A DNA stretch of 64,000 nucleotides from contig JBAZNR010000001.1 in assembly GCA_041649175.1 (NCBI GenBank), forward strand, positions 71,461 through 135,460, given 5' to 3'. Each line of letters opens with the position of its first letter. The stretch's first letter is position 1. The position numbers and the translations under genes were made by a program. Shown here in pieces: positions 28,095 to 57,333 of the stretch. The DNA comes from Candidatus Omnitrophota bacterium (GTDB taxonomy: Bacteria > Omnitrophota > Gorgyraeia > Zapsychrales > JBAZNR01). A model generated the notes under the pieces. It worked only from the letters and a program-made list of their open reading frames with translations. It searched no databases and was not told the DNA's origin.

Positions 28095-29114
<1,020 letters not shown>

Positions 29115-29119
29115 TTACT

Positions 29120-31162: not shown

Positions 31163-31191
31163 AAATTTAGATGAAATGAATAATGTGATGG

Positions 31192-31219
31192 ATTATATCA
31201 CAAAGGGAGGGTGGTGCAA
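31192..31219 (-). promoter_or_regulatory. sigma70-type promoter upstream of the galT pair (TTGCAC-16 nt-TATAAT)
   Basis: The minus-strand read is gatTTGCACcaccctccctttgtgaTATAATccatcacattattcatttcatctaaatttATG. Confidence 0.4.
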
Positions 31220-31225
31220 ATCAAT

Positions 31226-32161: not shown

Positions 32162-32170
32162 TCATCACCT

Positions 32171-35653: not shown

Positions 35654-35656
35654 CGC

Positions 35657-36418
35657 CTATTGTTTAATTCCCTTTTTGATTTCCCAATATTTCGCGTAGC
35701 TCATAATTTGATAAAGGGAAGCAAAAAACGCGATCATAAAACCAATAAAGCCGTCCTTGTATCCTTTTTTACCAAAGAAACTTCTGGGAAAACGGTCGAT
35801 GGTGCGCCAAACGGCTTTTCCTAAAGACATTTCGCGCCCTGTTTCAATCCATTTCTTCGCTTCCAAAGTTGTTTGCCGGTTTAAACTTGCCAGAAAATGT
35901 TCAAAATCAGGATAACCTTTATGAATAATATCTTTGGTCAAATGGCCTGTCTGTCCGTCCAGGAAAACTTTCGGATGGACACCAACTTCTTCATACTTGA
36001 ACCGGCTTTTCATAAAAAGCCGCAATTTTCCCGCCGGATACCAGCCGCCATGCTTCACCCAATAATTTCCGATGTAATTACGTAGAGGAATGGAAAACGC
36101 GTGAAACGTTGTTGCCGGTAAAATAGCCGAAATCTCACTCTTTAGCTCGCTGCTGGCAATTTCGTCGGCATCTAGGCTTAAAACCCATTCGTTTTTTGCT
36201 TGGAGATACGCCCAATTACGATGCGAGCCTTCATTATCCATTTTACGATGAAAGATTTTTCCGGCATAAGACTTGGCTAATTCAACCGTGCGGTCCTTAC
36301 TTTCATCGTCGACAACAATGATCTCATCCGCCCAGCCATAAACACTTCCTAGGCAGTCTTTGATATTATTTTCTTCGTTTTTCGTGATAACGACAACGGA
36401 TAGCGCGAGTTTACTCAT
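35657..36418 (-). CDS. GT2-family glycosyltransferase (WaaE/KdtX-like)
   Basis: LSVVVITKNEENNIKDCLGSV...IIVVDDESKD...SLDADE. Confidence 0.75.
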   Translation of the reverse strand: MSKLALSVVVITKNEENNIKDCLGSVYGWADEIIVVDDESKDRTVELAKSYAGKIFHRKMDNEGSHRNWAYLQAKNEWVLSLDADEIASSELKSEISAILPATTFHAFSIPLRNYIGNYWVKHGGWYPAGKLRLFMKSRFKYEEVGVHPKVFLDGQTGHLTKDIIHKGYPDFEHFLASLNRQTTLEAKKWIETGREMSLGKAVWRTIDRFPRSFFGKKGYKDGFIGFMIAFFASLYQIMSYAKYWEIKKGIKQ

Positions 36419-36426
36419 AGGTAAAA

Positions 36427-37539
36427 TTATTTTGCTTTCACAAGTTCTTTGATGGAGCTTGCAACCGCTTCGATCTGTTCTTTTTTCATATGTGGGAACA
36501 TCGGTAACGATAAAATTTCATCCGCCACTTGTTCGGATACGGGAAAATCACCTTTTTTATGTTTCAACTCTTGATAGGCTTCCTGTAAATGTAACGGGAT
36601 CGGATAATGGATAAGGACGCCAATTCCTTTTTTGCGCAGCTCATCATGAATTTGGTTACGGTTTTCCTTGATGCGGATAGCGAATGTTTGATAGACATGC
36701 GTACGCCCCTCTTTGGTAATTGGAGTCACAATGCCATCAACATCTTTAAGAAGTTTGCCGTAATATTCAGCGTGCTGGGCGCGCATTTTATTCCATTTAT
36801 CCAAGCGCTTCAATTTGGCGCTTAAAACAACCGCTTGAAGCGTATCAAGTCGGGAGTTATAACCTTTAATTTTGTGATTGTATCGCCCGACCCGTCCGTA
36901 ATCGCGCAACATCAGGCATTTTTCATAAAGGTCTTTATTGGCGGTGACGATCATCCCTCCATCGCCAAAAGCCCCTAAGCCTTTGGTCGGATAAAAACTA
37001 AAACAAGCGATATCCCCCAGAGAGCCTATTCTTTTGCCGTTATACGCCGCGCCGTGTGCCTGTGCCGCGTCTTCGATCACTTTAAGGTTGTGTTTTTTGG
37101 CAATCTGATTGATCTCATCCATATTGGCGGCTTGTCCATAAATATGGACCGGGATAATGGCTTTTGTTTTCTTAGTGATGGCTTTTTCGATCTTTTTAGG
37201 GTCAAGATTGTAAGTGTCTTTTTCAATGTCGACAAAAACAGGTGTGGCACCGGTGTAAGAAATGCACAGGGCTGTGGCGATAAATGTGAACGTCGGAATA
37301 ATAACTTCGTCGCCTACACCGATATCGAGAGAATCTACGGCTAAATATAAGGCATCCGTGCCGGAGTTAACACCAACGCCATATTTAGATTCACAAAACT
37401 TAGAGAATTCTACCTCAAACTCTTCTTCTTCTTTGCCTAGAACAAAATCTCCGTGCTTGAAAACTGTTTTAAATCCAACGTCGATCTCGTTTTTAATTTC
37501 TTCATATTGCTCGCTAAAATCAAGAAACGGAACCTTCAT
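36427..37539 (-). CDS. DegT/DnrJ/EryC1/StrS-family sugar aminotransferase
   Basis: VNSGTDALYLAVDSLDIGVGDEVIIPTFTFIATA...FSFYPTKGLGAFGDGG. Confidence 0.85.
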   Translation of the reverse strand: MKVPFLDFSEQYEEIKNEIDVGFKTVFKHGDFVLGKEEEEFEVEFSKFCESKYGVGVNSGTDALYLAVDSLDIGVGDEVIIPTFTFIATALCISYTGATPVFVDIEKDTYNLDPKKIEKAITKKTKAIIPVHIYGQAANMDEINQIAKKHNLKVIEDAAQAHGAAYNGKRIGSLGDIACFSFYPTKGLGAFGDGGMIVTANKDLYEKCLMLRDYGRVGRYNHKIKGYNSRLDTLQAVVLSAKLKRLDKWNKMRAQHAEYYGKLLKDVDGIVTPITKEGRTHVYQTFAIRIKENRNQIHDELRKKGIGVLIHYPIPLHLQEAYQELKHKKGDFPVSEQVADEILSLPMFPHMKKEQIEAVASSIKELVKAK

Positions 37540-38630
37540 AAAATGCTCTCCACCTTTCTTAAAACTTCATCAACGGTAATAAGATTTAAGCAGCTGTGAT
37601 GTTCGCAGCGTGCCATTCTAAACTGCCGGTAACATGGCCGACAAACTAAATCCTTTGTTACGATCTCATGGCCTTGCGCCGGATACGGCCCATAAACTTT
37701 TTCATCTACAGGTCCAAAAATAGAAACTGTTTTAGCCCTGACGGCAACGGCCACATGTAAAGGTCCGCCGTCGTTGGCAACAACTAAGGAGCTTCGCGCC
37801 AAAAGAGCCGCGCATTGAGTTATGGTTATTTCATTGCAAATTGCGGCTGGGGCATTTTTCATGGTTTGCGCGATATGATCGCACAAACTTTTTTCTTTTA
37901 AGTCACCCAACAGTATAACGGCCGCAGAAAATTTTTCAATCATTTTGTCGGCTAAAATAGCGAAGTTTTCTGATGTCCAGCGTTTAAAAGAAGCATCCTT
38001 GCCCCAGCTGGCCCCACCACCCGGGATAATCACGATCAAAGGTTTTTTAGGGCTTATGTTAGCTTTGCTAAGAAACTCCTCCGCCCATATTTTATCCGAA
38101 TCCGACAAAACAAGCTCGAATTCCTTATACGGCGTTGGAATTCCAAGCTCTTTAAGCAGATCTAAATAATATTCAGCGACGTGGCGGCCTTCATATCCAT
38201 TTCTTAAAAAAATTTTCCTTGTTAAAAACCAGCTTCGGTTACGATAGTTAAAACCAACCCGTTTTTTGATTCCGGCGGCCCACAATAAAAAAGAGGTCGA
38301 GTTATTAAACGACAAGTTGATGGCTAGATCAAAATTCTCTTTTTTGATCTCGCGCAAAAATGAGATCATTTTCTTCAAAAAAGCTATTTTTGATCGGCGA
38401 TACACAGCCTGAAATTCATCCCGCTCATAAATAAATAATTTATCAATTCTAGTATTCTCGCTTAATAGAGGTGCCGTCCTTTTATTGCACACATAACCGA
38501 CAAAAGAATCAGGATCGTGGCTCTTAATATTTTTTAGTAGTGGCGTAGTGAATAAAATATCGCCGATGCCAAAAATATTAATGATAAGGATTTTATTTTT
38601 TGAAGGATTGTTTTGCGCAGTTGCCATCAT
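37536..38630 (-). CDS. GT9-family ADP-heptose:LPS heptosyltransferase
   Basis: KILIINIFGIGDILFTTPLLKNIK...GGGASWGKDASFKRW...GPLHVAVAV. Confidence 0.8.
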   Translation of the reverse strand: MMATAQNNPSKNKILIINIFGIGDILFTTPLLKNIKSHDPDSFVGYVCNKRTAPLLSENTRIDKLFIYERDEFQAVYRRSKIAFLKKMISFLREIKKENFDLAINLSFNNSTSFLLWAAGIKKRVGFNYRNRSWFLTRKIFLRNGYEGRHVAEYYLDLLKELGIPTPYKEFELVLSDSDKIWAEEFLSKANISPKKPLIVIIPGGGASWGKDASFKRWTSENFAILADKMIEKFSAAVILLGDLKEKSLCDHIAQTMKNAPAAICNEITITQCAALLARSSLVVANDGGPLHVAVAVRAKTVSIFGPVDEKVYGPYPAQGHEIVTKDLVCRPCYRQFRMARCEHHSCLNLITVDEVLRKVESIL

Positions 38631-38635
38631 GGATT

Positions 38636-39478
38636 TTATATGATCTTTTCTTTCACACGGCGAAATGTTTTCGCCCGGACCTTAAGGATGCGAAACGGAT
38701 GCCACCAATATTTTCCTCGAATACTGTCAAGGTCTTTACGACTTAGCTCATGGCTTGAAACTCTTTTGTTCATAACACACGGATGTGATCCAAAGTAAAC
38801 CGGAAAGCGATTTAAATCGCCGTACGAGTAGCTCGCTTGGCGCTCTTGATCTGTCAATGAGGCAAAGCCGATCTGTTCGGCATTTTTCCGGCGCTGACTC
38901 ATGACTTCCTGCGGATGGACCCAGCCGTAATGATATAGTAATTTCCCTGTGTTGATCCTTCGCATAGGTGCGAGGTCTTTGCGCCGAAATCCATAGGCAT
39001 CATCGTAGGATTCCATCTGACGATTATTTTTAATGATCCTATCTTGTTTTTGGAACCATCCGCTATCAATGCGATAGCGATAATAGCTTCCATAAAAATG
39101 CATCCAGGCAAAGCGTAGCGCATCAACTTTCTCGCTATGCTGATATTTCTGCATGTATTTTCTTAAGGGCCCTAGATCTTTTTCATGGATCACTTCATCT
39201 GCTTGCAGATAAAAAGCCCAATCTCCTTTACATTCTTTCAAAGCTAAATTCGTTTCTGCGGATAAAACAGACTTACCTTGAGAAAAATCCCATTTGCGCT
39301 GGATGATCTTTATTTTGGGATCACGCAGCGATCTGATCATGCTTAGCGTCTCATCTTCCCCTTCTCCAACATTAACAATAAATTCATCACAGATCGGTAA
39401 AATCGATTTGATCGATTCAAGGGCTGGATAATTGAATTTGACGGCATTGCGGACAATGGTAAAGCCACTGACTTTCAT
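38636..39478 (-). CDS. putative GT-A-fold glycosyltransferase
   Basis: MKVSGFTIVRNAVKFNYPALESIKSILPICDEFIVNVG...YLQADEV (DxD-like). Weak assignment. Confidence 0.4.
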   Translation of the reverse strand: MKVSGFTIVRNAVKFNYPALESIKSILPICDEFIVNVGEGEDETLSMIRSLRDPKIKIIQRKWDFSQGKSVLSAETNLALKECKGDWAFYLQADEVIHEKDLGPLRKYMQKYQHSEKVDALRFAWMHFYGSYYRYRIDSGWFQKQDRIIKNNRQMESYDDAYGFRRKDLAPMRRINTGKLLYHYGWVHPQEVMSQRRKNAEQIGFASLTDQERQASYSYGDLNRFPVYFGSHPCVMNKRVSSHELSRKDLDSIRGKYWWHPFRILKVRAKTFRRVKEKII

Positions 39479-39487
39479 TAAATTACG

Positions 39488-40606
39488 CTAACCTTTCGAA
39501 TGATAAACTTCACCATAAACTTTTAATGTCTCTTCGGCTGTTTTCAAAAAAGAAAAATCTTTTGCCCGCACCCTTGCTTTTTGCTGAAGGTTTTCTTTTA
39601 AGCGTTGATCACCGATAGTCTGGGCCATCGCATCCGCGATGGCCCGAGGATCCATAGGATCTACGGTTAAAGCAGCACCGCCAGCAATTTCCGGGCAAGA
39701 AGACACATTAGACGTAATAACCGCCGCGCCGCAACTAAACGCTTCCACAATAGGAAATCCAAAACCTTCATAGAGAGATGGAAAAACAAATACTTCCGCT
39801 AAATTATAAAGATATCTAAGTTCTTCGTCGGTCAAATAGCCCAAAAAGACTACATCATTTTTTAGTTTCAGATGATCAACGAAATAATAAATACTTTCAT
39901 TCATCCAGCCTGACATTCCGGCAATCACCAGCTTTCCGTTAAATTGTTTCTTTTCCTTAAGAAAGAAAAAAGCGCGAATAAGATTGTTAAGATTTTTTCT
40001 AGGTTCAATGGTCCCGACAAAAAATATGAACGGATCGCTGATCCCCTTTTCTTCGATCACCTTTTTTGCTTTTTGCCTTTGTTCGCTATCAAGAGGGTAA
40101 AAAATATTCTTATCAACACCTTGATGGACCATGCAAATCTTACTTTTATCAACAGAAAAATAACGCTCTAGATCATCCATGGTGCTTTGCGAGCAACAGA
40201 TGATCTTTGAGGCCTTTAAAACAGCTTCGTGAATATGGCGATCTGTTATTTCAATGGTGCTCTGCGTATGACTTTGTGGAAAGGCCTTATAAATAAGATC
40301 ATGGACGGTAACAACAATTTTGGCTTTCTCGATCGGAAGACTGTCGGGGCTGGGTGAATGATAAATATCAATGGCGCCTAAAGTCTCTTGAAGGCCACGA
40401 TTGAACCGGTCGATCTTAACAGAGAAATTCTTTTGGGTAAAAACGGGGGTCTTTCTTTTTGTGTCGAAGAGTTTCTTTTGAACGTAAAGCAGATATTCGT
40501 TTTGAGGATCGATCTGGCTTAAAGTATTCACCAGATTGTGCGCATAGCGGCCGATGCCGGTATATTTCTTATTTAAAAAGGAGCGGCAGTTGATCGCCAC
40601 GCGCAT
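39488..40606 (-). CDS. GT4-family glycosyltransferase
   Basis: EGFGFPIVEAFSCGAAVITSNVSSCPEIAG. Confidence 0.8.
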   Translation of the reverse strand: MRVAINCRSFLNKKYTGIGRYAHNLVNTLSQIDPQNEYLLYVQKKLFDTKRKTPVFTQKNFSVKIDRFNRGLQETLGAIDIYHSPSPDSLPIEKAKIVVTVHDLIYKAFPQSHTQSTIEITDRHIHEAVLKASKIICCSQSTMDDLERYFSVDKSKICMVHQGVDKNIFYPLDSEQRQKAKKVIEEKGISDPFIFFVGTIEPRKNLNNLIRAFFFLKEKKQFNGKLVIAGMSGWMNESIYYFVDHLKLKNDVVFLGYLTDEELRYLYNLAEVFVFPSLYEGFGFPIVEAFSCGAAVITSNVSSCPEIAGGAALTVDPMDPRAIADAMAQTIGDQRLKENLQQKARVRAKDFSFLKTAEETLKVYGEVYHSKG

Positions 40607-40610
40607 ACGG

Positions 40611-41753
40611 CTATTTTCCTTTTGATTTTAGGAATTTTTTAATTACTTCGATGACATATTTAAGATTTTCAATGCCTAAATCTTGGTGAACACCGATATG
40701 AAAACCATAATTGCCGAAATATTCAGCCTGAGGAAAATCACCCAATTTATAGCCTAAGAATTTATACCCCGGACATTGGGTCGGCATGGAATAAAAAAGA
40801 TTGCGGGAATCAATTCCGGCTTTATCAATATACGCGACAATTTCATCTCTGGTAAATGGCGCTTCTTCCGTTAAAGTCACCGGAAAAGCATGCGGCCCAA
40901 GCTTCTCATAGGGCTCTTCTTGAATAGAAAAAAGATAACGGTCAAATTGCTTGAAATTCTCGATAAGAAATTTCATATTCCGACGGCGCTTAGCGAGGAT
41001 CTTCGAAAATATCTTTATATTGCCCAGCCCAACAGCCGCTTCGATCTCATTCATTTTCGAAGAAAATCCCACGCGCTTAAAAACAAATTTATGTTCCATG
41101 CCGTGATTGCGCAGTGACCTTAAAATTCCCGCCAAACGGCTGTCATTGGTTGTGATGATCCCGCCTTCAATGGTCGTAACAATGTGCGCCGCATAAAGGC
41201 TAAACGCCGCCATATCCCCAATTGAGCCTATCAATTGGCCGCGATACTCGGCTCCATGAGCCTCCGCGGCATCTTCGATAACGAAAAGTTTATATTTCTT
41301 AGCGAGCGCCATGATCTTGCCCATGTCAGCGGGTTTTCCCATCAAATGAACCGGCATAATAGCTCTTGTCTTGGGCGTGATCGCGGCTTCGATTTTTTCG
41401 GGATTAATATTAAGTGTTTTTCGCTCAACATCCACAAAAACCGGATTAAATCCCGCGTTTAAAACAGCATTGCCGGTGGCTATAAAAGATAGCGCCGGAA
41501 TAATGACCTCATCTCCTCGTTTGGCTCCAAAATCATAAAGTGTCGCCAAAGCTAAAGTATCGGCGTCGGTTCCACTACTGACCGCAACGGCTTCTTTGAC
41601 GCCGAAAAGTTTCGCGAATTTTTCTTCAAAAGAGCGAACGTATTGCCCTTGCGTCACCCACTTTGTTTTTAAAGCTTTGTCGATAAGTTTACGTGCATCA
41701 CTGGTGACCGAAACAGTTCCGAAAGGAACTCGATAATTTGTTTTATGCGCCAT
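40611..41753 (-). CDS. DegT/DnrJ/EryC1/StrS-family sugar aminotransferase
   Basis: VSSGTDADTLALATLYDFGAKRGDEVIIPALSFIATGNAV...AAFSLYAAHIVTTIEGG. Confidence 0.8.
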   Translation of the reverse strand: MAHKTNYRVPFGTVSVTSDARKLIDKALKTKWVTQGQYVRSFEEKFAKLFGVKEAVAVSSGTDADTLALATLYDFGAKRGDEVIIPALSFIATGNAVLNAGFNPVFVDVERKTLNINPEKIEAAITPKTRAIMPVHLMGKPADMGKIMALAKKYKLFVIEDAAEAHGAEYRGQLIGSIGDMAAFSLYAAHIVTTIEGGIITTNDSRLAGILRSLRNHGMEHKFVFKRVGFSSKMNEIEAAVGLGNIKIFSKILAKRRRNMKFLIENFKQFDRYLFSIQEEPYEKLGPHAFPVTLTEEAPFTRDEIVAYIDKAGIDSRNLFYSMPTQCPGYKFLGYKLGDFPQAEYFGNYGFHIGVHQDLGIENLKYVIEVIKKFLKSKGK

Positions 41754-42468
41754 GGATACCTGCTTTTCTTAGGAATTGTTGTACTTGGTTATAACGTTCG
41801 GGGGTCCCAATATCGATAAATTCCCCTTTGGCCATATAGGCGAAAAATTCTTCACCGATCAGCTTCGGGAAAAAATCATATTCAATGGAAAATTGTTCGC
41901 TTGTTTTCACAGAAGAGAAGATGTTCTTGTTCAAACAATACGTCCCGGTGTTTACGTAAGCGGATTTACCGGAGGCTATTTTTTCCTTAAAAGCTAAGAT
42001 CCGATTGTTGTGATCAAATTCAATGGTCCCAAAATCACCGCTTTCCAGAACCTTATTAACGGCAATCGTTGCTACAGCTTTATGGCTTTCATGAAACTTG
42101 GCCAGATCCTTGTACTCTAAAGTGCAAAAACAATCCCCGTTCATGGCGATAAAATGTTCGCTTTGAACAAGCGATGCTCCCTTTTTGATAGCACCGCCTG
42201 TCCCCAGGGGGCTTTCTTCTCGAGAAAAAACAATATCTAAATGTTGAAATGTTTTTTTAAAATACGCTTCAATGACATCAGCGCCGTATCCGGTGCATAA
42301 AATAAACCGCTTCCCGCCTTGCGCGGCAATATAGTCGATCAGGACATTTAAAAATGGTTTTCCGTTAACCTCGGCAAGAACCTTGGGCGCATCGCCTGTC
42401 ACAGAGCGCAGGCGCTTTCCCAGTCCACCGCAAAGAATAACAAAATCTATTTTTGATAAATTGTTCAC
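41743..42468 (-). CDS. hddC: sugar-1-phosphate nucleotidyltransferase (HddC-like, D-glycero-D-manno-heptose-1-P guanylyltransferase suspected)
   Basis: IDFVILCGGLGKRLRSVTGDAPKVLAEVNGKPFL. It lies next to the GHMP heptose kinase and gmhB. Confidence 0.65.
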   Translation of the reverse strand: MNNLSKIDFVILCGGLGKRLRSVTGDAPKVLAEVNGKPFLNVLIDYIAAQGGKRFILCTGYGADVIEAYFKKTFQHLDIVFSREESPLGTGGAIKKGASLVQSEHFIAMNGDCFCTLEYKDLAKFHESHKAVATIAVNKVLESGDFGTIEFDHNNRILAFKEKIASGKSAYVNTGTYCLNKNIFSSVKTSEQFSIEYDFFPKLIGEEFFAYMAKGEFIDIGTPERYNQVQQFLRKAGIHGA

Positions 42469-42479
42469 AGGAAAGTTTT

Positions 42480-43484
42480 TTAGCGAACCTTGCCGCTATC
42501 GGGCTGATAGAAGATGATCTGACTTCCTAAGCTTTCAAAGCGAAAAGGAATTTCTAAATATTTCTTTAGCTTTTCTCGGATCTTTTTTTGTTTTTCAGGC
42601 TGTGCGAACAGAAGAACGAAGCCGCCGCCGCCAGCGCCTAATAATTTTCCACCCAAAGCCCCTGCCCGGCGAGCTGTATTGTATAATTCATCAATTTGAG
42701 GAGTGGTGATCTTATCGGAAAGGCTGCGCTTCAATTTCCAGCTTTCATGAAGAAGTTTTCCGAAACGCGAAAGATCTTTTCCCTCCACAATATCAAACGC
42801 CTCTTTGACCATCTCTTGCATGGCCCCCAGCTCTTTTCTTTTACTAGGGATATTTTTTATTTGATGTTCGGCGATCTCGGAGGCCATCCGCGAAAATCCC
42901 GTAAAAAACATCATCAAATGATCTTGCAAAGACTGCAGCCGTTCTTGCGGAATAGTGATCTTTCGGACAGACAAGTGACTGCTTCCGCCAAATTCAATAT
43001 AGTTAAATCCGCCATAAGCCGCTAATGTTTGATCTTGGCATCCGACATTTTCTTTGCATTTTTTCTGCTCGATATAGATCGCCTCTTTGGCTAAACGCTC
43101 TTTGGTCGGCATGGTTCCTTTAAGAGCATACAAGGCATTCAGAAGCCCAACGGTAAACGATGAGCTGGAACCGAGTCCAGTGCGCGCCGGTAAATCACCG
43201 TCGTGATGGATTTCGATCCCTTCTTTGATCTTTAAGAATTTTAAAACTTCACGAACCGCCGGATGGCGAATATCTTCAGTTTCCTGAATATGTTCAATCA
43301 CAGAATAAATAATGCGGGATTTGTGCTCAAAAAATGGCGGTAAATGGCGGCATGTAATATAACAATATTTATCAATGGTGGTCGCTAAAACAGCGCCTTT
43401 ATTTTCCTTGAACCAATCAGGATAATCGGTGCCGCCGCCAAAAAAAGAAACACGAAAAGGTGTCCGGCTAATGATCATACACAA
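42480..43484 (-). CDS. hddA: GHMP-family sugar kinase (HddA-like, D-glycero-D-manno-heptose-7-P kinase)
   Basis: ISRTPFRVSFFGGGTDYPDW...PARTGLGSSSSF (GHMP motif II). Confidence 0.7.
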   Translation of the reverse strand: MCMIISRTPFRVSFFGGGTDYPDWFKENKGAVLATTIDKYCYITCRHLPPFFEHKSRIIYSVIEHIQETEDIRHPAVREVLKFLKIKEGIEIHHDGDLPARTGLGSSSSFTVGLLNALYALKGTMPTKERLAKEAIYIEQKKCKENVGCQDQTLAAYGGFNYIEFGGSSHLSVRKITIPQERLQSLQDHLMMFFTGFSRMASEIAEHQIKNIPSKRKELGAMQEMVKEAFDIVEGKDLSRFGKLLHESWKLKRSLSDKITTPQIDELYNTARRAGALGGKLLGAGGGGFVLLFAQPEKQKKIREKLKKYLEIPFRFESLGSQIIFYQPDSGKVR

Positions 43485-44986
43485 ACCCTTTCTTCAAGAA
43501 TTTTACGGCGTAATTTTATTTTGGTTGATTTTAACGTTTCGTCGACGGCTGTTTGTCCAAATTTGTCTTTGAGTAAAGCGAGAAATTTTGGGTTGGTATG
43601 GTAAGTATGCCACGCTTTATCACGAAATTCCAAAACCTGTTCGGCGCTTAAATATTTTGTCGGCAAAGGCTGGCACGCATAAGAATGTTGGGAAAATCCC
43701 GCGTATGTATCAGGCAATTTCCACCCTTCTTTCTTGGCAATTCCATATAAAGGGCTGCCCGGATAAGCCATGGCAGAGTAAAAGTTCGCCATTTCCGTAT
43801 TAAGCTCAAGGGCTAGGTCAAGTGTCGCTTGCATGGTTTCAAGATTATCCTCGGGAAGTCCAAAAATATAATTCGCGGCAACATTGATGCCGTGATCGCG
43901 GATCTTTTTGACAATACCTCGGATATCAACATCTTCGAACCGCCCCTTAGTGACATCTTTTCTTACCTTAGTATTGCCGCTTTCAATGCCGAGTGCCAGA
44001 TAATTAATGCCGGCTTTTTTAAGAGTTTCCAAATACTGTTCTTTGACCGTATCAATACGCGAATAACACCAAATATTAAACTGATAATCACGCTCAATAA
44101 GCAGTTCACATAAACGCATAAAATGATTCGTGTTTAAAACAAAAAGTTCGTCAGCGATCTTAATATTTCGAATGCCAAGTGTTTGCAGTTTATCAAATTC
44201 CTTAACAATGAATTCCGGATCCCAATACCTAAAAACCGCGCTTCCATCGGAATATTCATTTTCCTGCCGATTGATGATGTTGATCATGCAAAAAGAACAT
44301 TTCATCGGGCAACCCAAGCTCGTATAGATCGCCCCGAAAGGTTCCCGGTCGGCGCTATTAGGAAGCGAGTGCCAAAGCGCCGTGCGATATCTGGACATAG
44401 ATAATTTATCCCAGGCAACGCCGGGCAATTCAGTTGCCAGATCTTCCTTGGACACGATCGGCGACGGGCTATTAAGAACGATTTTCCCATCTTGACGATA
44501 CCCTAGCCCAAGAACTTGGTCCAACTTATCTTCCAAATTAGTTTTAAGAAGATTGGAAATAGTGTAGACGCCTTCATTCTGGCAAACCATATCAATATAG
44601 GGATGTTTTTCAAGGACTTCGCGCGATAAAGCGCTGACATGCCCGCCGACAAAAAGTATTTTGATTTCCGGAGAATTTTTCTTGAGCTCTTCCGCTAAAG
44701 AAACAGCCCCATCCATATTTTGCGAACTGGCGCTGGGTTGTTGCCCGTAAACAACAAAACAGGCAACCTTGGGGTTAAAACCTTTGATCATCATCGCCGC
44801 GTGAAAATCATCCAGGCGCAAGGCTTCACAGTCTAAAATCTCGGCGCTAAACCCTTTTTTAAGGCAATGATTGGCTAACATCCCCGCCCAAATAGGCGGC
44901 TCAATGGCGGAATAATATTTGCTAAGCCCCTGATAAATTTTCTCGGAGGCATTAGGCTGGATAAAAAGAATATCGAGTTGCTTCAT
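43475..44986 (-). CDS. B12-binding radical SAM enzyme (class B; methyltransferase-like)
   Basis: N-terminal Rossmann-like B12-binding domain (ILFIQPNA...EILDCEA); TSLGCPMKCSFCMI CxxxCxxC; 503 aa. Confidence 0.8.
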   Translation of the reverse strand: MKQLDILFIQPNASEKIYQGLSKYYSAIEPPIWAGMLANHCLKKGFSAEILDCEALRLDDFHAAMMIKGFNPKVACFVVYGQQPSASSQNMDGAVSLAEELKKNSPEIKILFVGGHVSALSREVLEKHPYIDMVCQNEGVYTISNLLKTNLEDKLDQVLGLGYRQDGKIVLNSPSPIVSKEDLATELPGVAWDKLSMSRYRTALWHSLPNSADREPFGAIYTSLGCPMKCSFCMINIINRQENEYSDGSAVFRYWDPEFIVKEFDKLQTLGIRNIKIADELFVLNTNHFMRLCELLIERDYQFNIWCYSRIDTVKEQYLETLKKAGINYLALGIESGNTKVRKDVTKGRFEDVDIRGIVKKIRDHGINVAANYIFGLPEDNLETMQATLDLALELNTEMANFYSAMAYPGSPLYGIAKKEGWKLPDTYAGFSQHSYACQPLPTKYLSAEQVLEFRDKAWHTYHTNPKFLALLKDKFGQTAVDETLKSTKIKLRRKILEERVCV

Positions 44987-44998
44987 GAATTAAAAACC

Positions 44999-45931
44999 TT
45001 ATATATTGGCGTATTGGTTACGTTTGATGACCTGATAACCCTTAATAAGCTCTTGAATACCTTTAGAGATCGAAACATCCGGTTTAAAACCGGTTTTTTC
45101 GATCTTTTCGTTACTGACGATGTAATCACGTTTATCGGGATCTTCGCCTATTTTAGATTCAACAAAATAGAATTCCTTAACATGTTTCTTGATCTCTTCG
45201 CAAAGTTCTAATTTACTTAAATTCGCATCACTTAAGCCAACATTGTAAGGCTCATTTTTCATCTTGTCAAAATTGTTAAGTGAATGGATAAAGGCTTTAG
45301 TGATATCGCGCACATGAATATAGTTACGCTTAAAATGGGCTTCGAATAAAACGACAAAACGGTCAAAAACCGCGCGATAAACAAAATCATTCACCAGTAA
45401 ATCCAAGCGCATGCGCGGACTAACGCCAAAGGCCGTTGCTAAACGCAATGTAATTCCATGGCCGGAATTAAGGATCGTTTCTTCTGCCTGAACTTTAAGC
45501 TTTCCATATAAAGAAACAGGACGAAGCGGAGTTTGCTCGGTGCAAAACTTTCCTTTTTCTCCGATGCCATAACCGCTATTGGTCGTCGGAAAAATAAGGA
45601 TTTGATTTTTACTTGTCATGTCGACGATCGTTTTAACGGCATCCGCTAAAATAGTTTGCGCACCAACGGGGTCTTTGGCGCATAACGGCGCGCCTGTCAA
45701 GCAGGCCAAGGGGAAAATAGCGTCAGATTGCTTAACCAATTTCTCCATTAAATTCTTATCGCGCGTATCACCGCGAATGATCGTTAAATTGTCGCTATGA
45801 CAACAATCTAAAAGCGACGGTTGATTATACATAAAATTATCCAAGGCAATGACTTGATGATTTTCCTTGAGCAAGGCCGGTGTTAAAACCGAGCCGATGT
45901 ACCCCGCTGCGCCTGTTACCAAGATTTTCAT
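44999..45931 (-). CDS. NAD-dependent nucleotide-sugar epimerase/dehydratase (SDR)
   Basis: MKILVTGAAGYIGSVL...YGKLKVQAE (YxxxK). Start at MKILVTG, making an ATGA overlap with the fcl stop; the longer ORF runs to 45967. Confidence 0.75.
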   Translation of the reverse strand: MKILVTGAAGYIGSVLTPALLKENHQVIALDNFMYNQPSLLDCCHSDNLTIIRGDTRDKNLMEKLVKQSDAIFPLACLTGAPLCAKDPVGAQTILADAVKTIVDMTSKNQILIFPTTNSGYGIGEKGKFCTEQTPLRPVSLYGKLKVQAEETILNSGHGITLRLATAFGVSPRMRLDLLVNDFVYRAVFDRFVVLFEAHFKRNYIHVRDITKAFIHSLNNFDKMKNEPYNVGLSDANLSKLELCEEIKKHVKEFYFVESKIGEDPDKRDYIVSNEKIEKTGFKPDVSISKGIQELIKGYQVIKRNQYANI

Positions 45932-46872
45932 TTTTTTAACTCCGCTGTTTTTTGTTTTAAATACCAATCGTATGTTTTTGTGATGCCTTCTTTTAAATCG
46001 ACCTTTGGTTTCCAGCCTAATTTTTCAATCTTTTGATTATCCAACAATTTACGCATCGTTCCATCGGGCTTCGTCTTGTCAAAAATAATCTCCCCTTTAA
46101 ACCCGGATATATCCGCGATCAACGAAGCTAGCTCTTTGATGGAAACATCTCTCCCGCAACCAATATTGATCGGCTCCTCATCTTTGTATTTTTCCATTAA
46201 AAATAAACAGCTTTCAACAAAATCATCCGCGTAAATAAATTCCCGTTGTGGTTTTCCCGTCCCCCAGACTACAACGCTTTTTTCATTACGCAATTTGGCT
46301 TCGGTAAATTTCCCGATGAGCGCCCCAATAACATGCGCTGTTTCTTGATTGGCATCACTTCCGGGGCCGTAAATCGTCGCTGGAATTGCAACGATCGCGT
46401 CAAATTTGTATTGCCGCTGATAAGCTTGACAAAGCTTTATTCCGGCGATCTTGGCCACCGAATAGGCTTCACTCGTTTCTTCCAGGGGTCCTGTTAACAA
46501 ATATTTTTCTTTGATGGGCTGTAAACTTTCTTTAGGGTAAACGCAAGAGCCAGCCAAAAACAAAAGCTTTTTAACTCCAAAAGTATACGCCGCATGAACG
46601 ATATTGTTCTGAGCTTCTAGATTTTCGTAAATAAATTCGGCGGAAAATTTTTGATTAGCGGCAATTCCACCGGAACGCACCGAGCCCAAGAAAACATATT
46701 CCGGCCTTTTTTCTTCAAAGAACTTTTTTACGTTTGCCTGATTTAAAACATCCCACCCGATCATCCCGGATAAAAAAACATGATCAAATCCCTGTCGGGC
46801 AAAATACGACCCTAAGGAGTTTTCAATAACGTCTTGATGGCCGATAACTAGGATTTTACTACTTTTTTGCAT
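45928..46872 (-). CDS. fcl: GDP-L-fucose synthase (GDP-4-keto-6-deoxy-D-mannose 3,5-epimerase/4-reductase)
   Basis: KILVIGHQDVIENSLGSY...LFLAGSCVYPK...YSVAKIAG is the typical Fcl/WcaG signature. Confidence 0.8.
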   Translation of the reverse strand: MQKSSKILVIGHQDVIENSLGSYFARQGFDHVFLSGMIGWDVLNQANVKKFFEEKRPEYVFLGSVRSGGIAANQKFSAEFIYENLEAQNNIVHAAYTFGVKKLLFLAGSCVYPKESLQPIKEKYLLTGPLEETSEAYSVAKIAGIKLCQAYQRQYKFDAIVAIPATIYGPGSDANQETAHVIGALIGKFTEAKLRNEKSVVVWGTGKPQREFIYADDFVESCLFLMEKYKDEEPINIGCGRDVSIKELASLIADISGFKGEIIFDKTKPDGTMRKLLDNQKIEKLGWKPKVDLKEGITKTYDWYLKQKTAELKK

Positions 46873-46875
46873 GAA

Positions 46876-47412
46876 CTACTTTTGATTATAGAAGTTTCCG
46901 TGTTCTATCAGAAGAGTGGATTTATTATCTTTGCGCTCAAAGGCATGTTTGTAGGCCGGAAAAATATCTTCCGGTTCATTGAGCTCAACAACATCAATGG
47001 TGGTAAACATTTTTCTAAAGGCATCCGCGTAGTTTCCGACGTGCTGATGGCCGGGATGCACGGGGCTATCGGGTCCGGTTGCCACCCGAATTAAGACTTT
47101 AGGAATCAACTGATTAGCGCTGATCGCCGGTATTTTATCCAGCATATTGACCATATCTGAAACCGCAATGAGCAGAAAATTTTGCCGCGGATAAACCGAG
47201 ATAGGAATATACCCCGCTAGGGATAATCCGATCGTAAATTGCATTTGAAAACTTTCATTGATCGGCATTTCTAAAGTCCGCTCGGGCGATACATCGCGAA
47301 GCGTTTGGAACATAAAAGTCCCTGGCCCGGCAACAGTTTGCCCGACAAAAATAGACTTAGGCTGCTGGGCCAACCATTCCATCGTGCGTTTTAATTCGTC
47401 AAAATATTTCAT
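46876..47412 (-). CDS. thiamine-diphosphate enzyme, pyrimidine-binding subunit (E1-beta / transketolase C-section-like, minimal)
   Basis: 178 aa; Pyr-domain-like; lacks the C-terminal TK_C domain of canonical E1-beta. Confidence 0.6.
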   Translation of the reverse strand: MKYFDELKRTMEWLAQQPKSIFVGQTVAGPGTFMFQTLRDVSPERTLEMPINESFQMQFTIGLSLAGYIPISVYPRQNFLLIAVSDMVNMLDKIPAISANQLIPKVLIRVATGPDSPVHPGHQHVGNYADAFRKMFTTIDVVELNEPEDIFPAYKHAFERKDNKSTLLIEHGNFYNQK

Positions 47413-47413
47413 A

Positions 47414-48025
47414 TTAAAATTTAATGAGTTTTCCTAGCCCAGAATGCGGATAACCGTTTAGATATTTAAAATAGATGATCTTGGATTCAAATTTTGTATC
47501 TTTAAACCACGGCTCAGCGCAATTCCAGACTTCTCTGGTTTTTGTCATAACGCTAAGCCCATTATCGCAAACAATGAATTTAACCGGCAGGTCAAAGTGG
47601 ACGGCGTATTTCACCGATTCGTGAAAAATCCCCGTTTCAGCTGACATATCACCGCAAAAAATGTAGGCTTTTCCTTTTTTTCCTTGGCGTTTTAAAGCCC
47701 ATGCAACGCCGACCGCTGTTCCTAAAAGGCTTCCGACAATACCTGAACAGAGAATTTTCTGCCCCGGAAAACACAAAGAAATGCTTTTGCCTTCCTGAAT
47801 AGCCTTCTTAAGCTCTTCGCGCCCAACCCCTTTTAGAAGAGCCAGTTCGTGAGAATCCCAGAAGCCGAAGACATAGTCATCCGAGCCAATGGCATTTTCC
47901 TTAAAAATCCGGATGAGCTCGTCTTCCCGCCCGGCACGTAAATGGACAGGAGCCCGAATACTGCCAGTGGCAAAAATGTCGGCTATTTCCTTCTCAAAGC
48001 TGATGATTTCTTCTTTGGTAACCAT
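47414..48025 (-). CDS. thiamine-diphosphate enzyme, PP-binding subunit (E1-alpha-like, minimal)
   Basis: CGDMSAETGIFHESVKYAVHFDLPVKFIVCDNGLSV matches the GDG-X25-30-NN TPP motif and aligns with E1-alpha GDGA...FVCENNQYAM. The printed sequence has an extra C at 48000/48001 relative to the ORF track. Confidence 0.65.
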   Translation of the reverse strand: MVTKEEIISFEKEIADIFATGSIRAPVHLRAGREDELIRIFKENAIGSDDYVFGFWDSHELALLKGVGREELKKAIQEGKSISLCFPGQKILCSGIVGSLLGTAVGVAWALKRQGKKGKAYIFCGDMSAETGIFHESVKYAVHFDLPVKFIVCDNGLSVMTKTREVWNCAEPWFKDTKFESKIIYFKYLNGYPHSGLGKLIKF

Positions 48026-48058
48026 AGCAATTTAGACGTTTTAATGAAACGATAGTGT

Positions 48059-48087
48059 AGTATAGCGAAAACTTATCCTAAACTCAA
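48059..48087 (-). promoter_or_regulatory. candidate internal sigma70-type promoter (TTGAGT-17 nt-TATACT) upstream of the E1-alpha-like gene
   Basis: The minus-strand read is TTGAGTttaggataagttttcgcTATACTacactatcg..., 27 nt upstream of the ATG. It lies in the only large gap (about 270 bp) of the glycan operon. Confidence 0.3.
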
Positions 48088-48111
48088 ATAATAATATTTG
48101 GATTTTAGGGC

Positions 48112-48270
48112 CTAAAATAAGGCGTAGATAAACGGAGCTACGGCCGAACTTTGGGCCAAGATCATTAGCGATCCTAGCAGAATAAGGACTACAACGATCG
48201 GCATCAGCCAATACTTCTTTCTCACGCTTAAAAATTCCCATAATTCTTTCAGAATAGACAACTTCGACAT
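48112..48270 (-). CDS. small membrane protein, DUF5989/SxtK-like (52 aa; below the ORF-track length cut-off)
   Basis: Hand-translated as MSKLSILKELWEFLSVRKKYWLMPIVVVLILLGSLMILAQSSAVAPFIYALF*. AGGAGA sits 7 nt upstream of the ATG. There is one TM helix and a C-terminal APFIY(T/A)LF-type motif recalled from DUF5989 proteins. Coordinates are within 1 nt. Confidence 0.55.
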   Translation of the reverse strand: MSKLSILKELWEFLSVRKKYWLMPIVVVLILLGSLMILAQSSAVAPFIYALF

Positions 48271-48293
48271 GAATAGCTCTCCTTTTTTATTTC

Positions 48294-49925
48294 CTACTGG
48301 GCTAGTTTTTCTAAAATAACATCCGCCAACCGATCAGCGATCAGCTGATTACCCTTACGCGTACAATGCCCAAAATCTCCGGCAAATTGATCCACAAAAT
48401 ACTCATCATAACGCCCTGTTTTTAAGGCTTTCTCAAATACTTCTTTATTTTCAACAAAGATTATATTACGTTTCTGACCTAACATTTCCTTCAACGGCAG
48501 GATATCGCGCAAAGGATACTGCATACAGATCAGTTTCACCCTACTGCGTAAAATGCGGTCGACAATGTCGAGATAATGTTTGACGGTGAATGAATTATAC
48601 GTCCGAGAAGATGTCACTTTGCTTTTTTCGGCATATTCTTTGGCTAAATCGGATTTTCCTTGTCTTTCGTAACATCGAATCAAATATTCATAAAGACGCA
48701 CATCTTTGGGATTCAGCGCGATCGCTTTTAAATAAAGGCTTTCTGCTTTCGCATATTGCTGTTCCTCCTCGTAAAGAGAACCGAGCTGTTGATAGACCCA
48801 GTGATTTTGCGGATTGATCTCAAGAGACCTCAAGAAAGCTTCTTTAGCTTGGGCGTTTTGCCCCTGAATCTTTAGCCATTGGCCCATTTCGCCGTACGCC
48901 CAAAAGTTATTTGGATCTATTTTTAGTAAATCGCGATAAACCACAATGGCCTTTTCATGATTTCCCACTTCGTTATTGCATCGGCCTAATTCAAGGCGAG
49001 CCCAAAATAATTCCGGATCAAGCGCGATCGCTTTTTCAAAGACCGTTATTGCTTGATCAAATTTTCTTTGAACCTTATAACAACGGCCCAAGCCCGCATA
49101 GGCAACCGCATCTTGCGGGCTGATCTCGATCGCTTTTTGATAAGCACTTTCAGACTGGAGGAATTCTTCACGCTCCCGATGCCAGCGCCCTAACTCTGAA
49201 TAAAGATCTCCCAGGGCAAGATTAAGCTTCTGCTCTTGTTCTTGCGCTTTCTCAACACCTGCCAAATTTCCGCGTTTTTCATAAGCCTTTTTGATCTCTT
49301 GAATTAATTGATGGTTCTTTGTTATCTGCGTTATTTGGAAACGAATGACCGCGATCTCTTTAACTGGCACAACATCTTCCGGAATGTCGGAATATTGCTT
49401 TGGCCTCGTCTTAAATCCAAATCTAATTTTATGAGATACGTGCAATGCGAGAAGCTTGGCAAGTTTATAAACACGCAGGTCTCCCGCAAGAGAACGAATT
49501 GGTGCTTTTCTGTCCTGGCCGGCAAGGCCGTCATATTTGTCATCATTGATCCCCATCATCACAATGACTGCCTGCGGTTTGTACTTGGCCAAATTGGCTT
49601 CGAGCTGCGCGGCGATATCGCCCGAGTCTTTAGCCGGAAGTCCCTTATTGATAATTTTAAATTTAATTTTTCTGCTTCTTTCATTGAGAGTTTCTTCAAG
49701 CAAAAAAGGATAGGCATATTCTCCGCCTAAGGCTGTTGTTGATTCTCCTAAGCATAAAATACGATATTCGCTGTCACCTTGAAGAGAAATCTTATTTGAC
49801 CGCTCCTGCAGATAAAAGAATGCCGCGCCGCTTAAGCGCAATCCTGACTCCAAAAGAATAACGGATAAAGCTAGGCCTAAAAAAATGAGGGATATTTTCT
49901 GGATCAATGTTGTTTTCATGATCAT
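48294..49925 (-). CDS. membrane-anchored SGNH/GDSL-family hydrolase interrupted by a TPR-repeat domain (paralogue 1)
   Basis: N-terminal TM anchor; block I ILCLGESTT (Ser nucleophile); block III MMGINDD; about 280 aa of TPR repeats (AYAGLGRCY, WARLELGRC, WAYGEMGQW, WVYQQLGSLY...); C-terminal block V DFGHCT (DxxH). Confidence 0.7.
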   Translation of the reverse strand: MIMKTTLIQKISLIFLGLALSVILLESGLRLSGAAFFYLQERSNKISLQGDSEYRILCLGESTTALGGEYAYPFLLEETLNERSRKIKFKIINKGLPAKDSGDIAAQLEANLAKYKPQAVIVMMGINDDKYDGLAGQDRKAPIRSLAGDLRVYKLAKLLALHVSHKIRFGFKTRPKQYSDIPEDVVPVKEIAVIRFQITQITKNHQLIQEIKKAYEKRGNLAGVEKAQEQEQKLNLALGDLYSELGRWHREREEFLQSESAYQKAIEISPQDAVAYAGLGRCYKVQRKFDQAITVFEKAIALDPELFWARLELGRCNNEVGNHEKAIVVYRDLLKIDPNNFWAYGEMGQWLKIQGQNAQAKEAFLRSLEINPQNHWVYQQLGSLYEEEQQYAKAESLYLKAIALNPKDVRLYEYLIRCYERQGKSDLAKEYAEKSKVTSSRTYNSFTVKHYLDIVDRILRSRVKLICMQYPLRDILPLKEMLGQKRNIIFVENKEVFEKALKTGRYDEYFVDQFAGDFGHCTRKGNQLIADRLADVILEKLAQ

Positions 49926-49939
49926 AAAAGCGCTTTAAC

Positions 49940-51559: not shown

Positions 51560-51579
51560 TTAAACTGTGGGATGCTTTT

Positions 51580-52536: not shown

Positions 52537-52553
52537 TTATTTTCGCCTTTTGA

Positions 52554-53855: not shown

Positions 53856-53870
53856 ATCATTTCCTCAGAT

Positions 53871-54830: not shown

Positions 54831-54837
54831 AGGTAAA

Positions 54838-55572: not shown

Positions 55573-55575
55573 AAA

Positions 55576-57329: not shown

Positions 57330-57333
57330 GTTT

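Follow-up and report, generated by a model that had tools for sequence, protein, structure and literature searches.

A radical-SAM gene in a conserved GDP-heptose cassette of Omnitrophota and its possible part in building a higher sugar of the cell envelope

A stretch of 64,000 nucleotides from a Candidatus Omnitrophota bacterium (contig JBAZNR010000001.1, positions 71,461 to 135,460; hereafter the window) was analysed around a radical S-adenosylmethionine (radical-SAM) gene that lies among genes of sugar metabolism. The span 41743..44986 holds exactly three open reading frames (ORFs), all on the minus strand and tightly packed. A first-pass annotation made from the letters alone had placed a B12-type radical-SAM gene beside hddA and hddC with gmhB nearby, and this is confirmed by the domains, by the HddA-like and HddC-like neighbours and by a GmhB-like gene about 6 kb downstream of the cassette genes on the same strand, where it is conserved further along the gene string. 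The statement that the radical-SAM gene directly follows hddA/hddC needs turning around, however; it does adjoin them, but on the minus strand it is transcribed ahead of the kinase and the transferase alike, and its stop codon TGA shares bases with the ATG of the kinase (ATGA). We consider it very probable that the radical-SAM protein acts in the GDP-heptose pathway that these genes would encode. The genes concerned, named after their closest relatives, are the following (SDR, short-chain dehydrogenase/reductase; PLP and PMP, pyridoxal and pyridoxamine 5'-phosphate; ThDP, thiamine diphosphate; GT, glycosyltransferase).

43475..44986, minus strand: radical-SAM protein, 503 aa, B12-binding-type domain and radical-SAM core
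42480..43478, minus strand: HddA-like GHMP sugar kinase, its start overlapping the radical-SAM stop
41743..42468, minus strand: HddC-like sugar-1-phosphate (GDP) nucleotidyltransferase, best family HddC
44999..45931, minus strand: Cj1427-like GDP-heptose C4-dehydrogenase, directly upstream of the radical-SAM gene, related to PDB 6vo6/6vo8
40611..41753, minus strand: ColD-type PMP-dependent sugar 3-dehydratase of the DegT fold, with His190 where the PLP lysine would be
45928..46872, minus strand: GDP-L-fucose-synthase/ColC-like SDR with a degenerate dinucleotide-binding loop
46876..47412, minus strand: E1-beta-like subunit of a minimal ThDP enzyme, 178 aa, Pyr domain only
47414..48025, minus strand: E1-alpha-like subunit of the same enzyme, 203 aa, PP domain
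35063..35653, minus strand: GmhB-like HAD-IIIA phosphatase, PRK08942 at 168 bits against a cutoff of 178
37536..40606, minus strand: three glycosyltransferases (GT4, GT2 and a heptosyltransferase-like GT9) after the cassette, syntenic in most Omnitrophota loci

Residues 28-146 of the radical-SAM protein match the B12-binding domain PF02310 (45.3 bits, cutoff 32.1) and residues 221-392 the Radical_SAM domain PF04055 (68.7 bits), which is the class-B architecture of a Rossmann-type B12-binding domain joined to a TIM-barrel core. The CX3CX2C motif of this class is present as GC226PMKC230SFC233 (C226-x3-C230-x2-C233), and its three cysteines are invariant across 41 aligned homologues reaching down to 45% identity. 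No further cysteine is invariant in that alignment; a single invariant CX3CX2C implies one [4Fe-4S] cluster, without an auxiliary one. The N-terminal domain is also rich in invariant residues (Y80-G81-Q82, G114, H116 and others), which are only suggestive of cobalamin use, and in fact the B12-type domain is insufficient to infer cobalamin dependence, because AprD4, a diol dehydratase, has the same domain and works without cobalamin. A 100% identical protein is recorded in one Candidatus Omnitrophota metagenome-assembled genome, where it is encoded on a contig of 1.2 Mb. Scanning the operon for promoters and terminators gave counts that were not usefully above the shuffled expectation.

As judged from its sequence, the protein is claimed by no curated family. 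The best NCBIfam family is HpnJ (TIGR03471), at 160.4 bits against a cutoff of 577.6, and it ranks first with each of the 41 family members tested, always far under its cutoff. BchE (TIGR02026), a C-C cyclase going by its NCBIfam name, comes second with 119 bits against 481, and ApyD reaches 113 against 750, while the AprD4 diol dehydratase family (NF033070) is matched over the core only, at 88 against 500. The methylase families likewise remain far under their cutoffs (PhpK 92/600, MCR-glutamine methylase 80/360, HpnR 62/650, KedN5 52/700 and TsrM 44/500), and the protein falls in no curated class-B methylase family of the GenK/Fom3/TsrM/TokK type. Among solved proteins AprD4 is the best sequence match (67.6 bits, core only). 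It is also the best Foldseek match of an AlphaFold model of the protein (pLDDT 86, pTM 0.89), with TM scores of 0.69/0.76 and 20% identity, ahead of the cobalamin methylases TsrM, CysS, TokK and MgmA and then OxsB; the matches to AprD4, TsrM, CysS, TokK and OxsB extend across both domains.

The family appears to be uncharacterised; it is large and very widespread, with 787 cluster representatives (clusters at 50% identity) at E<1e-30, and searches with three separate proteins gave no fewer than 120 clusters apiece at about 63% identity or above. When the Azospirillum homologue was the query, the organisms named among the clusters listed were Azospirillum, Ferrovibrio, Arenibaculum and Magnetospirillum. 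In a plasmid collection the cassette-type copies have 39-44% identity to the window protein and all other radical-SAM proteins at most 28%, the annotated bchE genes among them 23-25%, and this gap argues that the family is discrete.

Some members of the family are interrupted at their iron-sulfur motif. Of the 150 best cluster representatives, about 20 carry inteins (Hint/LAGLIDADG), most of which lie inside CX3CX2C, as GCPxK-intein-C230xxC with C230 as the +1 residue. The carriers at this 229/230 site, by our protein labels, are P0262, P0264, P0268, P0273-P0276, P0281, P0283, P0294, P0296, P0307, P0308, P0319, P0321, P0322, P0331 and P0355; two other sites were seen, at residues 335/336 (P0279) and at about 405-430 (P0339, P0390). 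We know of no earlier report of radical-SAM proteins whose iron-sulfur motif is a hot-spot for inteins.

The kinase-like, phosphatase-like and transferase-like trio points, with the support of homology, to a supply of GDP-heptose. The kinase matches HddA best among the NCBIfam families (144 bits, cutoff 600), and of the solved proteins the heptose kinases 3k85, WcbL and 4n3o stand nearest to it, scoring about 128 bits where mevalonate kinase scores 63. The nucleotidyltransferase has HddC as its best family (166 bits, cutoff 300) and is closest to 6jq8/5xhw, deposited as a 6-deoxy-D-mannoheptose pathway protein and taken here to be HddC, at 154 bits, the next solved protein scoring 98. The identities hddA, hddC and gmhB given at first thus hold as best matches, all three under the NCBI equivalog cutoffs. 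No GmhA gene was found within the 64-kb window by two different queries; GmhA/SIS genes adjoin the cassette in the loci that we label L071, L080/81, L083 and L086.

The genes that would define the substrate, namely the Cj1427-like C4-dehydrogenase, the ColD-type 3-dehydratase with its lysine replaced by histidine, the Fcl-like enzyme and the two-subunit thiamine enzyme, had been missed by the first-pass annotation. The C4-dehydrogenase aligns from end to end with 6vo6/6vo8 (407 bits, about 60% identity across 308 residues), the next solved match having only 81 bits, and this close full-length similarity places it in the Cj1427 type. We take 6vo6 to be Cj1427, the GDP-heptose C4-dehydrogenase, and the deposited name agrees. 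Genes for L-2-hydroxyglutarate oxidase/DAO proteins are found in the cassettes of Solidesulfovibrio magneticus (L083, 27453-28655), L079 (4459-5655) and L080 (11635-12792), and none was found within the window's own cassette. Cj1427 yields a 4-keto sugar in which the 6-OH is kept, and it recycles its bound NADH with alpha-ketoglutarate, forming L-2-hydroxyglutarate (PMC10680097). An L-2-hydroxyglutarate oxidase would regenerate alpha-ketoglutarate for an enzyme of this type, so that these neighbours lend independent support to the Cj1427-like assignment; that the window enzyme may also recycle NADH with alpha-ketoglutarate receives from them indirect support.

The DegT protein at 40611..41753 has RfbH as its best NCBIfam family and GDP-perosamine synthase as its closest solved relative, whose catalytic lysine aligns with His190 (FSLYAAH). 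A histidine at the place of this lysine marks the PMP-dependent 3-dehydratases ColD and E1, and His190 is invariant in the cassette copies of every clade. The protein contains one cysteine in 380 aa, which leaves no possibility of the 2Fe-2S cluster of the E1 subtype and makes it ColD-like rather than E1. A second DegT protein in the string (36427..37539) keeps the PLP lysine.

The Fcl-like SDR scores 380 bits with NF047922 (cutoff 500) and 264-282 bits with solved GDP-fucose synthases. A Ser/Tyr/Lys set and a Cys/His epimerisation dyad align with those of the E. coli GDP-fucose synthase, in which they have these roles. Its GxxGxxG loop, however, reads GHQDVIE, and GHxDxxE/D is found in almost all Omnitrophota orthologues (L001-L077). 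The loop is intact in Elusimicrobia (L055), L074, L079, Azospirillum lipoferum (L082) and Magnetospirillum (L085), and altered again in L080/81 and S. magneticus L083. By its sequence, the Omnitrophota protein may have kept the epimerase activity and lost the reduction of the 4-ketone.

Further upstream, the E1-alpha-like subunit matches PF00676 (E1_dh, 43.5 bits) and TPP_enzyme_C, has the pyruvate dehydrogenase (PDH) E1-alpha as its sole NCBIfam match and shows the ThDP motif GDM...x27...DNG. The E1-beta-like subunit matches Transket_pyr and PDH E1-beta, has the "PINES" glutamate loop and no Transketolase_C domain. Normal E1 subunits have about 330 and 340 aa. The minimal form also occurs in Nanopelagicus and on contig L079, full-length E1 in Elusimicrobia, S. 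magneticus and A. lipoferum, and a split transketolase in other clades. The ThDP role is thus filled by three non-orthologous forms (minimal E1, full-length E1 and split transketolase), and this suggests selection on the function and not on one gene. In 62 of 84 loci the radical-SAM gene has a gene pair for a two-subunit ThDP enzyme in its vicinity; of the inspected loci without it, only L062, L082 and L085 have long flanks, and at L082 (A. lipoferum 4B) an E1 pair lies 20 kb off on the same plasmid. Moreover, a natural fusion of the radical-SAM protein to E1-alpha was found (P0302, 829 aa, E1-alpha at residues 526-814), encoded at L087:1234-3723 on a Joint Genome Institute (JGI) metagenome contig of 3.8 kb and preceded by an SDR gene. 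We think a direct cooperation of the radical-SAM protein with the thiamine enzyme fairly probable.

The small split ThDP subunits had also suggested a phosphonate pathway, with a Fom3-like radical-SAM protein and a phosphonopyruvate decarboxylase. This was rejected, the upstream ORFs being GDSL/TPR proteins and sugar enzymes with no phosphoenolpyruvate (PEP) mutase, and the ThDP subunits matching E1 and not Ppd.

A scan with one genome per species gave 77 loci, 72 of them from Omnitrophota, with radical-SAM proteins of 63-83% identity. The Omnitrophota loci share one order: UDP-sugar dehydrogenases, SDR, ThDP alpha, ThDP beta, Fcl-like, Cj1427-like, radical-SAM, kinase, nucleotidyltransferase, DegT with histidine, glycosyltransferases, GT9, DegT, GT2 and GmhB-like. 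Counting only loci with sufficient flank, the radical-SAM gene has the kinase beside it in 60 of 63 and the Cj1427-like gene in 54 of 65; the DegT with histidine is present in 54/54, the nucleotidyltransferase in 53/54 and the minimal ThDP pair in 47/53, three more loci having a full-length E1 pair. An arrangement conserved in 72 Omnitrophota loci argues that the grouping of the radical-SAM gene with the sugar genes is not due to chance. Median identities within Omnitrophota are 75% for the radical-SAM protein, 79% for the Cj1427-like protein, 77% for ThDP alpha and 79% for ThDP beta, much above those of LptD (41%) and GT9 (47%). The cassette is a fixed and strongly constrained part of the Omnitrophota envelope machinery, not a variable O-antigen island. 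In the window the operon sits between lptD and priA. With lptD and a GT9 heptosyltransferase gene on its two sides, it is fixed throughout the phylum, and for this reason the glycan is probably part of the lipopolysaccharide (LPS) core in Omnitrophota.

Beyond this phylum, the Elusimicrobia cassette has full-length E1 alpha and beta, the DegT with histidine, two SDRs, the kinase and the nucleotidyltransferase around the radical-SAM gene, and that of Candidatus Nanopelagicus consists of HAD, GmhA, Cj1427-like, kinase, minimal ThDP pair, DegT with histidine and radical-SAM genes. Contigs of 4 Mb and 40 kb carry cassettes with added DAO-family oxidases and SIS and HAD genes. The complete set is found on plasmid pDMC1 of S. 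magneticus RS-1, including an annotated L-2-hydroxyglutarate oxidase and a SIS protein, and Azospirillum plasmids carry the cassette as well, in A. lipoferum 4B as two blocks 20 kb apart, the second with the DegT with histidine, E1 beta, E1 alpha, Cj1427-like, HAD-IIIA and SIS genes. The cassette genes include DMR_RS21980-22020 on pDMC1 and, on plasmid p6 of A. lipoferum 4B, AZOLI_RS29160 and RS29250-29270. Co-inheritance of the radical-SAM gene with a GDP-heptose glycan pathway is thus supported in at least five phyla or classes. A literature search found no paper describing this cassette.

Four independent pointers towards a GDP-sugar or a heptose come together here: the heptose kinases, HddC, Cj1427 (407 bits) and the GDP-fucose synthase/GDP-perosamine synthase as nearest relatives. 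That a heptose is modified by radical chemistry, as first proposed, is well supported by this pathway context, whereas C-methylation and B12 dependence had been read from the domain architecture only. The product is probably a new higher sugar of the cell envelope. In the route that homology supports, the HddA-like kinase, the GmhB-like phosphatase and the HddC-like transferase would supply GDP-heptose, the Cj1427-like dehydrogenase would oxidise C4 while the 6-OH is retained, and the ColD-type enzyme would strip the 3-OH, leading to GDP-3-deoxy-4-keto-D-glycero-heptose. Because a C4-dehydrogenase is used instead of a 4,6-dehydratase, the C6/C7 diol survives. A close precedent exists in vitro, where Cj1427 together with the HS:5 C3-dehydratase gives GDP-D-glycero-3-deoxy-4-keto-D-threo-heptose (Raushel laboratory, PMC10680097).

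The capsular GDP-heptose pathway of Campylobacter jejuni (HddA/HddC/GmhA/GmhB, Cj1427, the HS:5 C3-dehydratase and Fcl-like C4-reductases; Raushel/Holden, PMC10680097) starts from the same activated sugar. The two share a C4-dehydrogenase, the one here being about 60% identical to 6VO6, and a PLP/PMP 3-dehydratase with an Fcl-like SDR. The C. jejuni GDP-heptose pathways, in contrast, have neither a radical-SAM nor a thiamine enzyme, and there 3-deoxy-D-glycero-heptoses, which were called novel, were obtained only from enzymes put together in vitro, whereas here the pair is naturally co-encoded and is joined by two more enzymes of C-C/C-H chemistry. The GDP-L-colitose pathway (ColB, ColD, ColC) also resembles the cassette in having a ColD-type histidine enzyme and an Fcl/ColC-like enzyme acting on a GDP-4-keto sugar; yet there mannose is dehydrated by GMD, while here a heptose would be oxidised by a dehydrogenase, and the ColC-like protein of Omnitrophota is without the glycine-rich NADPH loop.

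Everything past the 3-deoxy-4-keto intermediate is inference. The E1-like enzyme would decarboxylate pyruvate and add the two-carbon unit (acetyl), most simply at the 4-ketone as YerE does. The radical-SAM enzyme would then take a hydrogen from the retained C6/C7 side chain, and in the step that we favour the C7 radical would close onto the new acetyl carbon, forming a cyclopentane of C4, C5, C6, C7 and C8 and thereby a caryose-like 4,8-cyclo-3,9-dideoxynonose. As a whole, the combination of a GDP-heptose pathway, a thiamine enzyme and a radical ring closure is the best explanation that we can offer, and we offer it tentatively; that ring closure by radical C-C bond formation is the actual chemistry of the radical-SAM protein may be so, and we hold this part with some reserve. 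In its favour are the consistent affinity to HpnJ and BchE, the ThDP partnership with its fusion, and the retained diol. The loss of the glycine-rich NADPH loop from the Omnitrophota Fcl-like protein would leave the 4-ketone unreduced, which also favours ring closure.

The logic of the thiamine step is that of yersiniose, in which 3-deoxygenation is followed by a ThDP acyl-anion addition at the 4-ketone; the same logic has been applied to erwiniose, caryophyllose and gastriose as well (PMC9306805). YerE/YerF (yersiniose), ErwE and MyGE (erwiniose, caryophyllose, gastriose) thus have in common with the cassette a 3-deoxy-4-keto nucleotide sugar and a ThDP carboligase. YerE and ErwE, however, are single-chain enzymes of the acetolactate-synthase type acting on CDP-hexoses, whereas the window encodes a two-subunit E1 type (203 + 178 aa; E1_dh and Transket_pyr) with an obligatory radical-SAM partner, for a substrate presumed to be a GDP-heptose with its 6-OH left in place. 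By analogy the window enzyme may work like YerE though it stands outside that family. E1alpha/beta-like pairs have been proposed for the branched sugars of avilamycin and paulomycin. Erwiniose itself, as heptose with C7 methylation and a C2 branch, was considered as the product and rejected, because ErwE forms this sugar with a C4 keto acid and a CDP-3,6-dideoxy-4-keto-hexose as its starting materials (PMC9306805).

The radical step is compared best with HpnJ, the best-scoring family, which has the same B12-binding and radical-SAM architecture, acts on a sugar substrate and has been genetically linked to the formation of a cyclopentitol from it (PMC9092360). Radical C-C chemistry is proposed for HpnJ, and the radical-SAM proteins Cds (calditol synthase) and PtmC are its analogues, implicated in making cyclopentitols from sugars; the products credited to this group are the bacteriohopanetetrol (BHT) cyclitol ether (HpnJ), calditol (Cds) and pactamycin (PtmC) (PMC9092360). 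On the other side of the comparison, the score of 160 is far from 577 bits, no hopanoid genes lie here, the substrate here would be a nucleotide sugar, and the role of HpnJ is itself genetic and not biochemical.

Caryose has the structure 4,8-cyclo-3,9-dideoxynonose, and its origin was stated as unknown in a 2022 review (PMC9092360). Each of its features can be mapped to one enzyme of the cassette: seven carbons to the heptose, the two-carbon unit with its 9-methyl to pyruvate and the 3-deoxy position to the ColD-type enzyme, while additions to ketones would explain the tertiary hydroxyls at C4 and C8, and the dehydrogenase the 6-OH. By our own reading of the prefixes, only C5 needs inversion relative to D-glycero-D-manno-heptose, which would fit an Fcl/ColC-type epimerase. 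That the cassette supplies the biosynthesis so far missing for caryose-type carbocyclic sugars is nevertheless somewhat doubtful. Were it true, carbocyclic-sugar synthesis, of caryose for instance, might find its explanation here, and such sugars, far from being peculiar to one plant pathogen, would be a fixed envelope component of the whole Omnitrophota phylum and widespread among freshwater Actinobacteria, Azospirillum and sulfate reducers as well.

Several points weigh against this account. The function of the radical-SAM family is argued from sequence and context, caryose is known from a single species, and the fusion, which we count as supporting evidence, is one metagenomic contig only. 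The NADPH loop is intact in several other clades, where C4 may be reduced, in which case the ThDP enzyme would need another site of action. Azospirillum Az39 and L074 have a ThDP enzyme of the transketolase type, and transketolases prefer aldehyde acceptors. No ThDP gene is in view at Magnetospirillum L085 and Omnitrophota L062. Radical addition to a ketone is chemically unusual, and most characterised class-B radical-SAM proteins are methylases.

This last point brings in a C-methylation of the Fom3/GenK type, in which a methyl group would be set by cobalamin-dependent catalysis on an unactivated carbon of the GDP-heptose intermediate, most likely the C7 hydroxymethyl, giving an 8-deoxy-octose, or alternatively the branch installed by the thiamine enzyme. 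It is the chemistry that the first-pass annotation had named, and it can no longer stand as stated, being one of several live options; we regard it as possible and yet on the unlikely side. The two-domain class-B architecture is present, TsrM, CysS, TokK and MgmA are all good structural matches among solved methylases, the invariant Y80-G81-Q82, G114 and H116 suggest that the cofactor site is still used, and GenK and Fom3 are established to methylate hydroxymethyl-type carbons. With GenK, Fom3, TokK and CysS the protein shares the fold, and would share the functionalising of an unactivated sp3 carbon beside oxygen, although they are remote (14-17% identity in structural alignments). MtnA and 5'-methylthioadenosine (MTA) phosphorylase by the Azospirillum cassette would fit a stoichiometric use of SAM, but they would fit any radical-SAM enzyme. 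The methylase families, on the other hand, score under HpnJ and BchE, which are not methylases, and the best structural match, AprD4, is non-methylating; cobalamin binding is not readable from the sequence, and methylation leaves the strict ThDP partnership and the one fusion unexplained.

AprD4 itself suggests another possibility, a radical dehydration or oxidation of the C6/C7 diol to a 6-deoxy-7-aldehyde or a 7-deoxy-6-ketone, onto which the ThDP enzyme would add two carbons in the manner of DXS or transketolase, giving a linear deoxy-nonose. AprD4 is the best solved match both by sequence and by structure, it acts on the vicinal diol of a sugar, and with AprD3 (C3' deoxygenation of apramycin) it shares with the cassette a radical-SAM core with an N-terminal B12-like domain and an SDR partner. 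The transketolase-type ThDP enzymes of some clades need aldehyde acceptors, C4 could be completed separately by the Fcl-like reductase, which is intact there, and the fusion with E1-alpha fits consecutive steps. Yet the AprD4 family is matched at 88 of 500 bits over the core only and at 20% identity, the AprD4 substrate is a pseudodisaccharide and not an NDP-sugar, HpnJ is the consistently closer family, and the conserved 3-deoxy-4-keto chemistry, the classical set-up for ThDP branching at C4 (PMC9306805), would be left without an obvious purpose. We find this reading unlikely. Finally, the radical-SAM gene might merely travel with the sugar genes and serve in the modification of a lipid, tetrapyrrole or peptide, as HpnJ (hopanoid) and BchE (bacteriochlorophyll) as best curated families might hint. 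This is close to refuted by scores far under both cutoffs, by the gap between at most 28% identity to plasmid-borne BchE and other radical-SAM proteins and 39-44% in cassette-type copies, by the overlap with the kinase start codon and by the same sugar-gene synteny in Omnitrophota, Elusimicrobia, Actinobacteria, Alphaproteobacteria and Desulfovibrionia. A search for orthology to a radical-SAM protein of lipid or bacteriochlorophyll synthesis in another gene context found none; the neighbourhood consists of sugar genes in all examined loci, with no hopanoid genes nearby.

The reading that we prefer, a ring closure on a GDP-heptose branched by the thiamine enzyme, would join known nucleotide-sugar chemistry to an uncharacterised radical-SAM family and an unusual minimal E1 enzyme. 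Half of the pathway steps have Campylobacter relatives, and for a thiamine and a radical enzyme acting on a nucleotide heptose we found no precedent. Solving the radical-SAM protein would thus add a new reaction to nucleotide-sugar chemistry and give a name to the sugar apparently fixed in the Omnitrophota envelope. To our knowledge Omnitrophota are known only from metagenome-assembled genomes; complete cassettes lie on plasmids of the culturable A. lipoferum 4B and S. magneticus RS-1, which makes these ideas directly testable.

Other genes accompany the cassette in places. Two tandem paralogous ORFs (48294..51559; 543 and 539 aa), each GDSL/SGNH-lipase-like at the N-terminus and with tetratricopeptide repeats (TPR) at the C-terminus, are inserted between the SDR and the ThDP genes, and a copy is found only in the related loci L002, L029 and L058. 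Between the two UDP-sugar dehydrogenase genes, 53871..56025 encodes an RmlA-like protein, RmlB (436 bits, above cutoff) and a 149-aa cupin (RmlC/FdtA-like), a trio missing at the equivalent position in most Omnitrophota relatives.

A second sugar cluster of the nonulosonic-acid type lies at about 3700..25000 (L078), with NeuB, two cytidylyltransferases of the CMP-sugar type, a UDP-GlcNAc 2-epimerase, several DegT proteins, a HisF/HisH-like pair, methyltransferases, an ABC transporter and four ORFs of 315-537 aa without a Pfam match. A nonulosonate had been the alternative substrate suggested at first; the NeuB cluster is 20-40 kb away and outside the conserved cassette, and a link of the radical-SAM gene to it was rejected, as the two are not co-conserved. 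Among the ORFs of at least 120 aa in the window, the sole one on the plus strand that is clear of longer minus-strand ORFs encodes methylenetetrahydrofolate reductase (MTHFR, 27159..28031), and the GC skew is negative in all 2-kb bins of the window (1..64000).

On plasmid p6 of A. lipoferum 4B (L082, NC_016588.1 ~27800-35100; L086 40744-43009), genes for a PEP-utilising enzyme, a GATase-type hydrolase, a cytidylyltransferase, an adenylyl-sulfate-kinase-like protein and a methyltransferase lie beside the cassette, a set that resembles the genes Cj1415-Cj1418 of the O-methyl-phosphoramidate pathway of Campylobacter. The MtnA and MTA phosphorylase genes found beside the A. lipoferum cassette could salvage 5'-deoxyadenosine derived from the radical-SAM reaction. 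On plasmid p5 of Azospirillum argentinense Az39 (L084 9126-10871), a distant "cobalamin-dependent protein" with 25% identity to the window radical-SAM protein adjoins, together with a class I methyltransferase, the split transketolase and the cassette-type radical-SAM gene, in a region rich in insertion sequences (IS).

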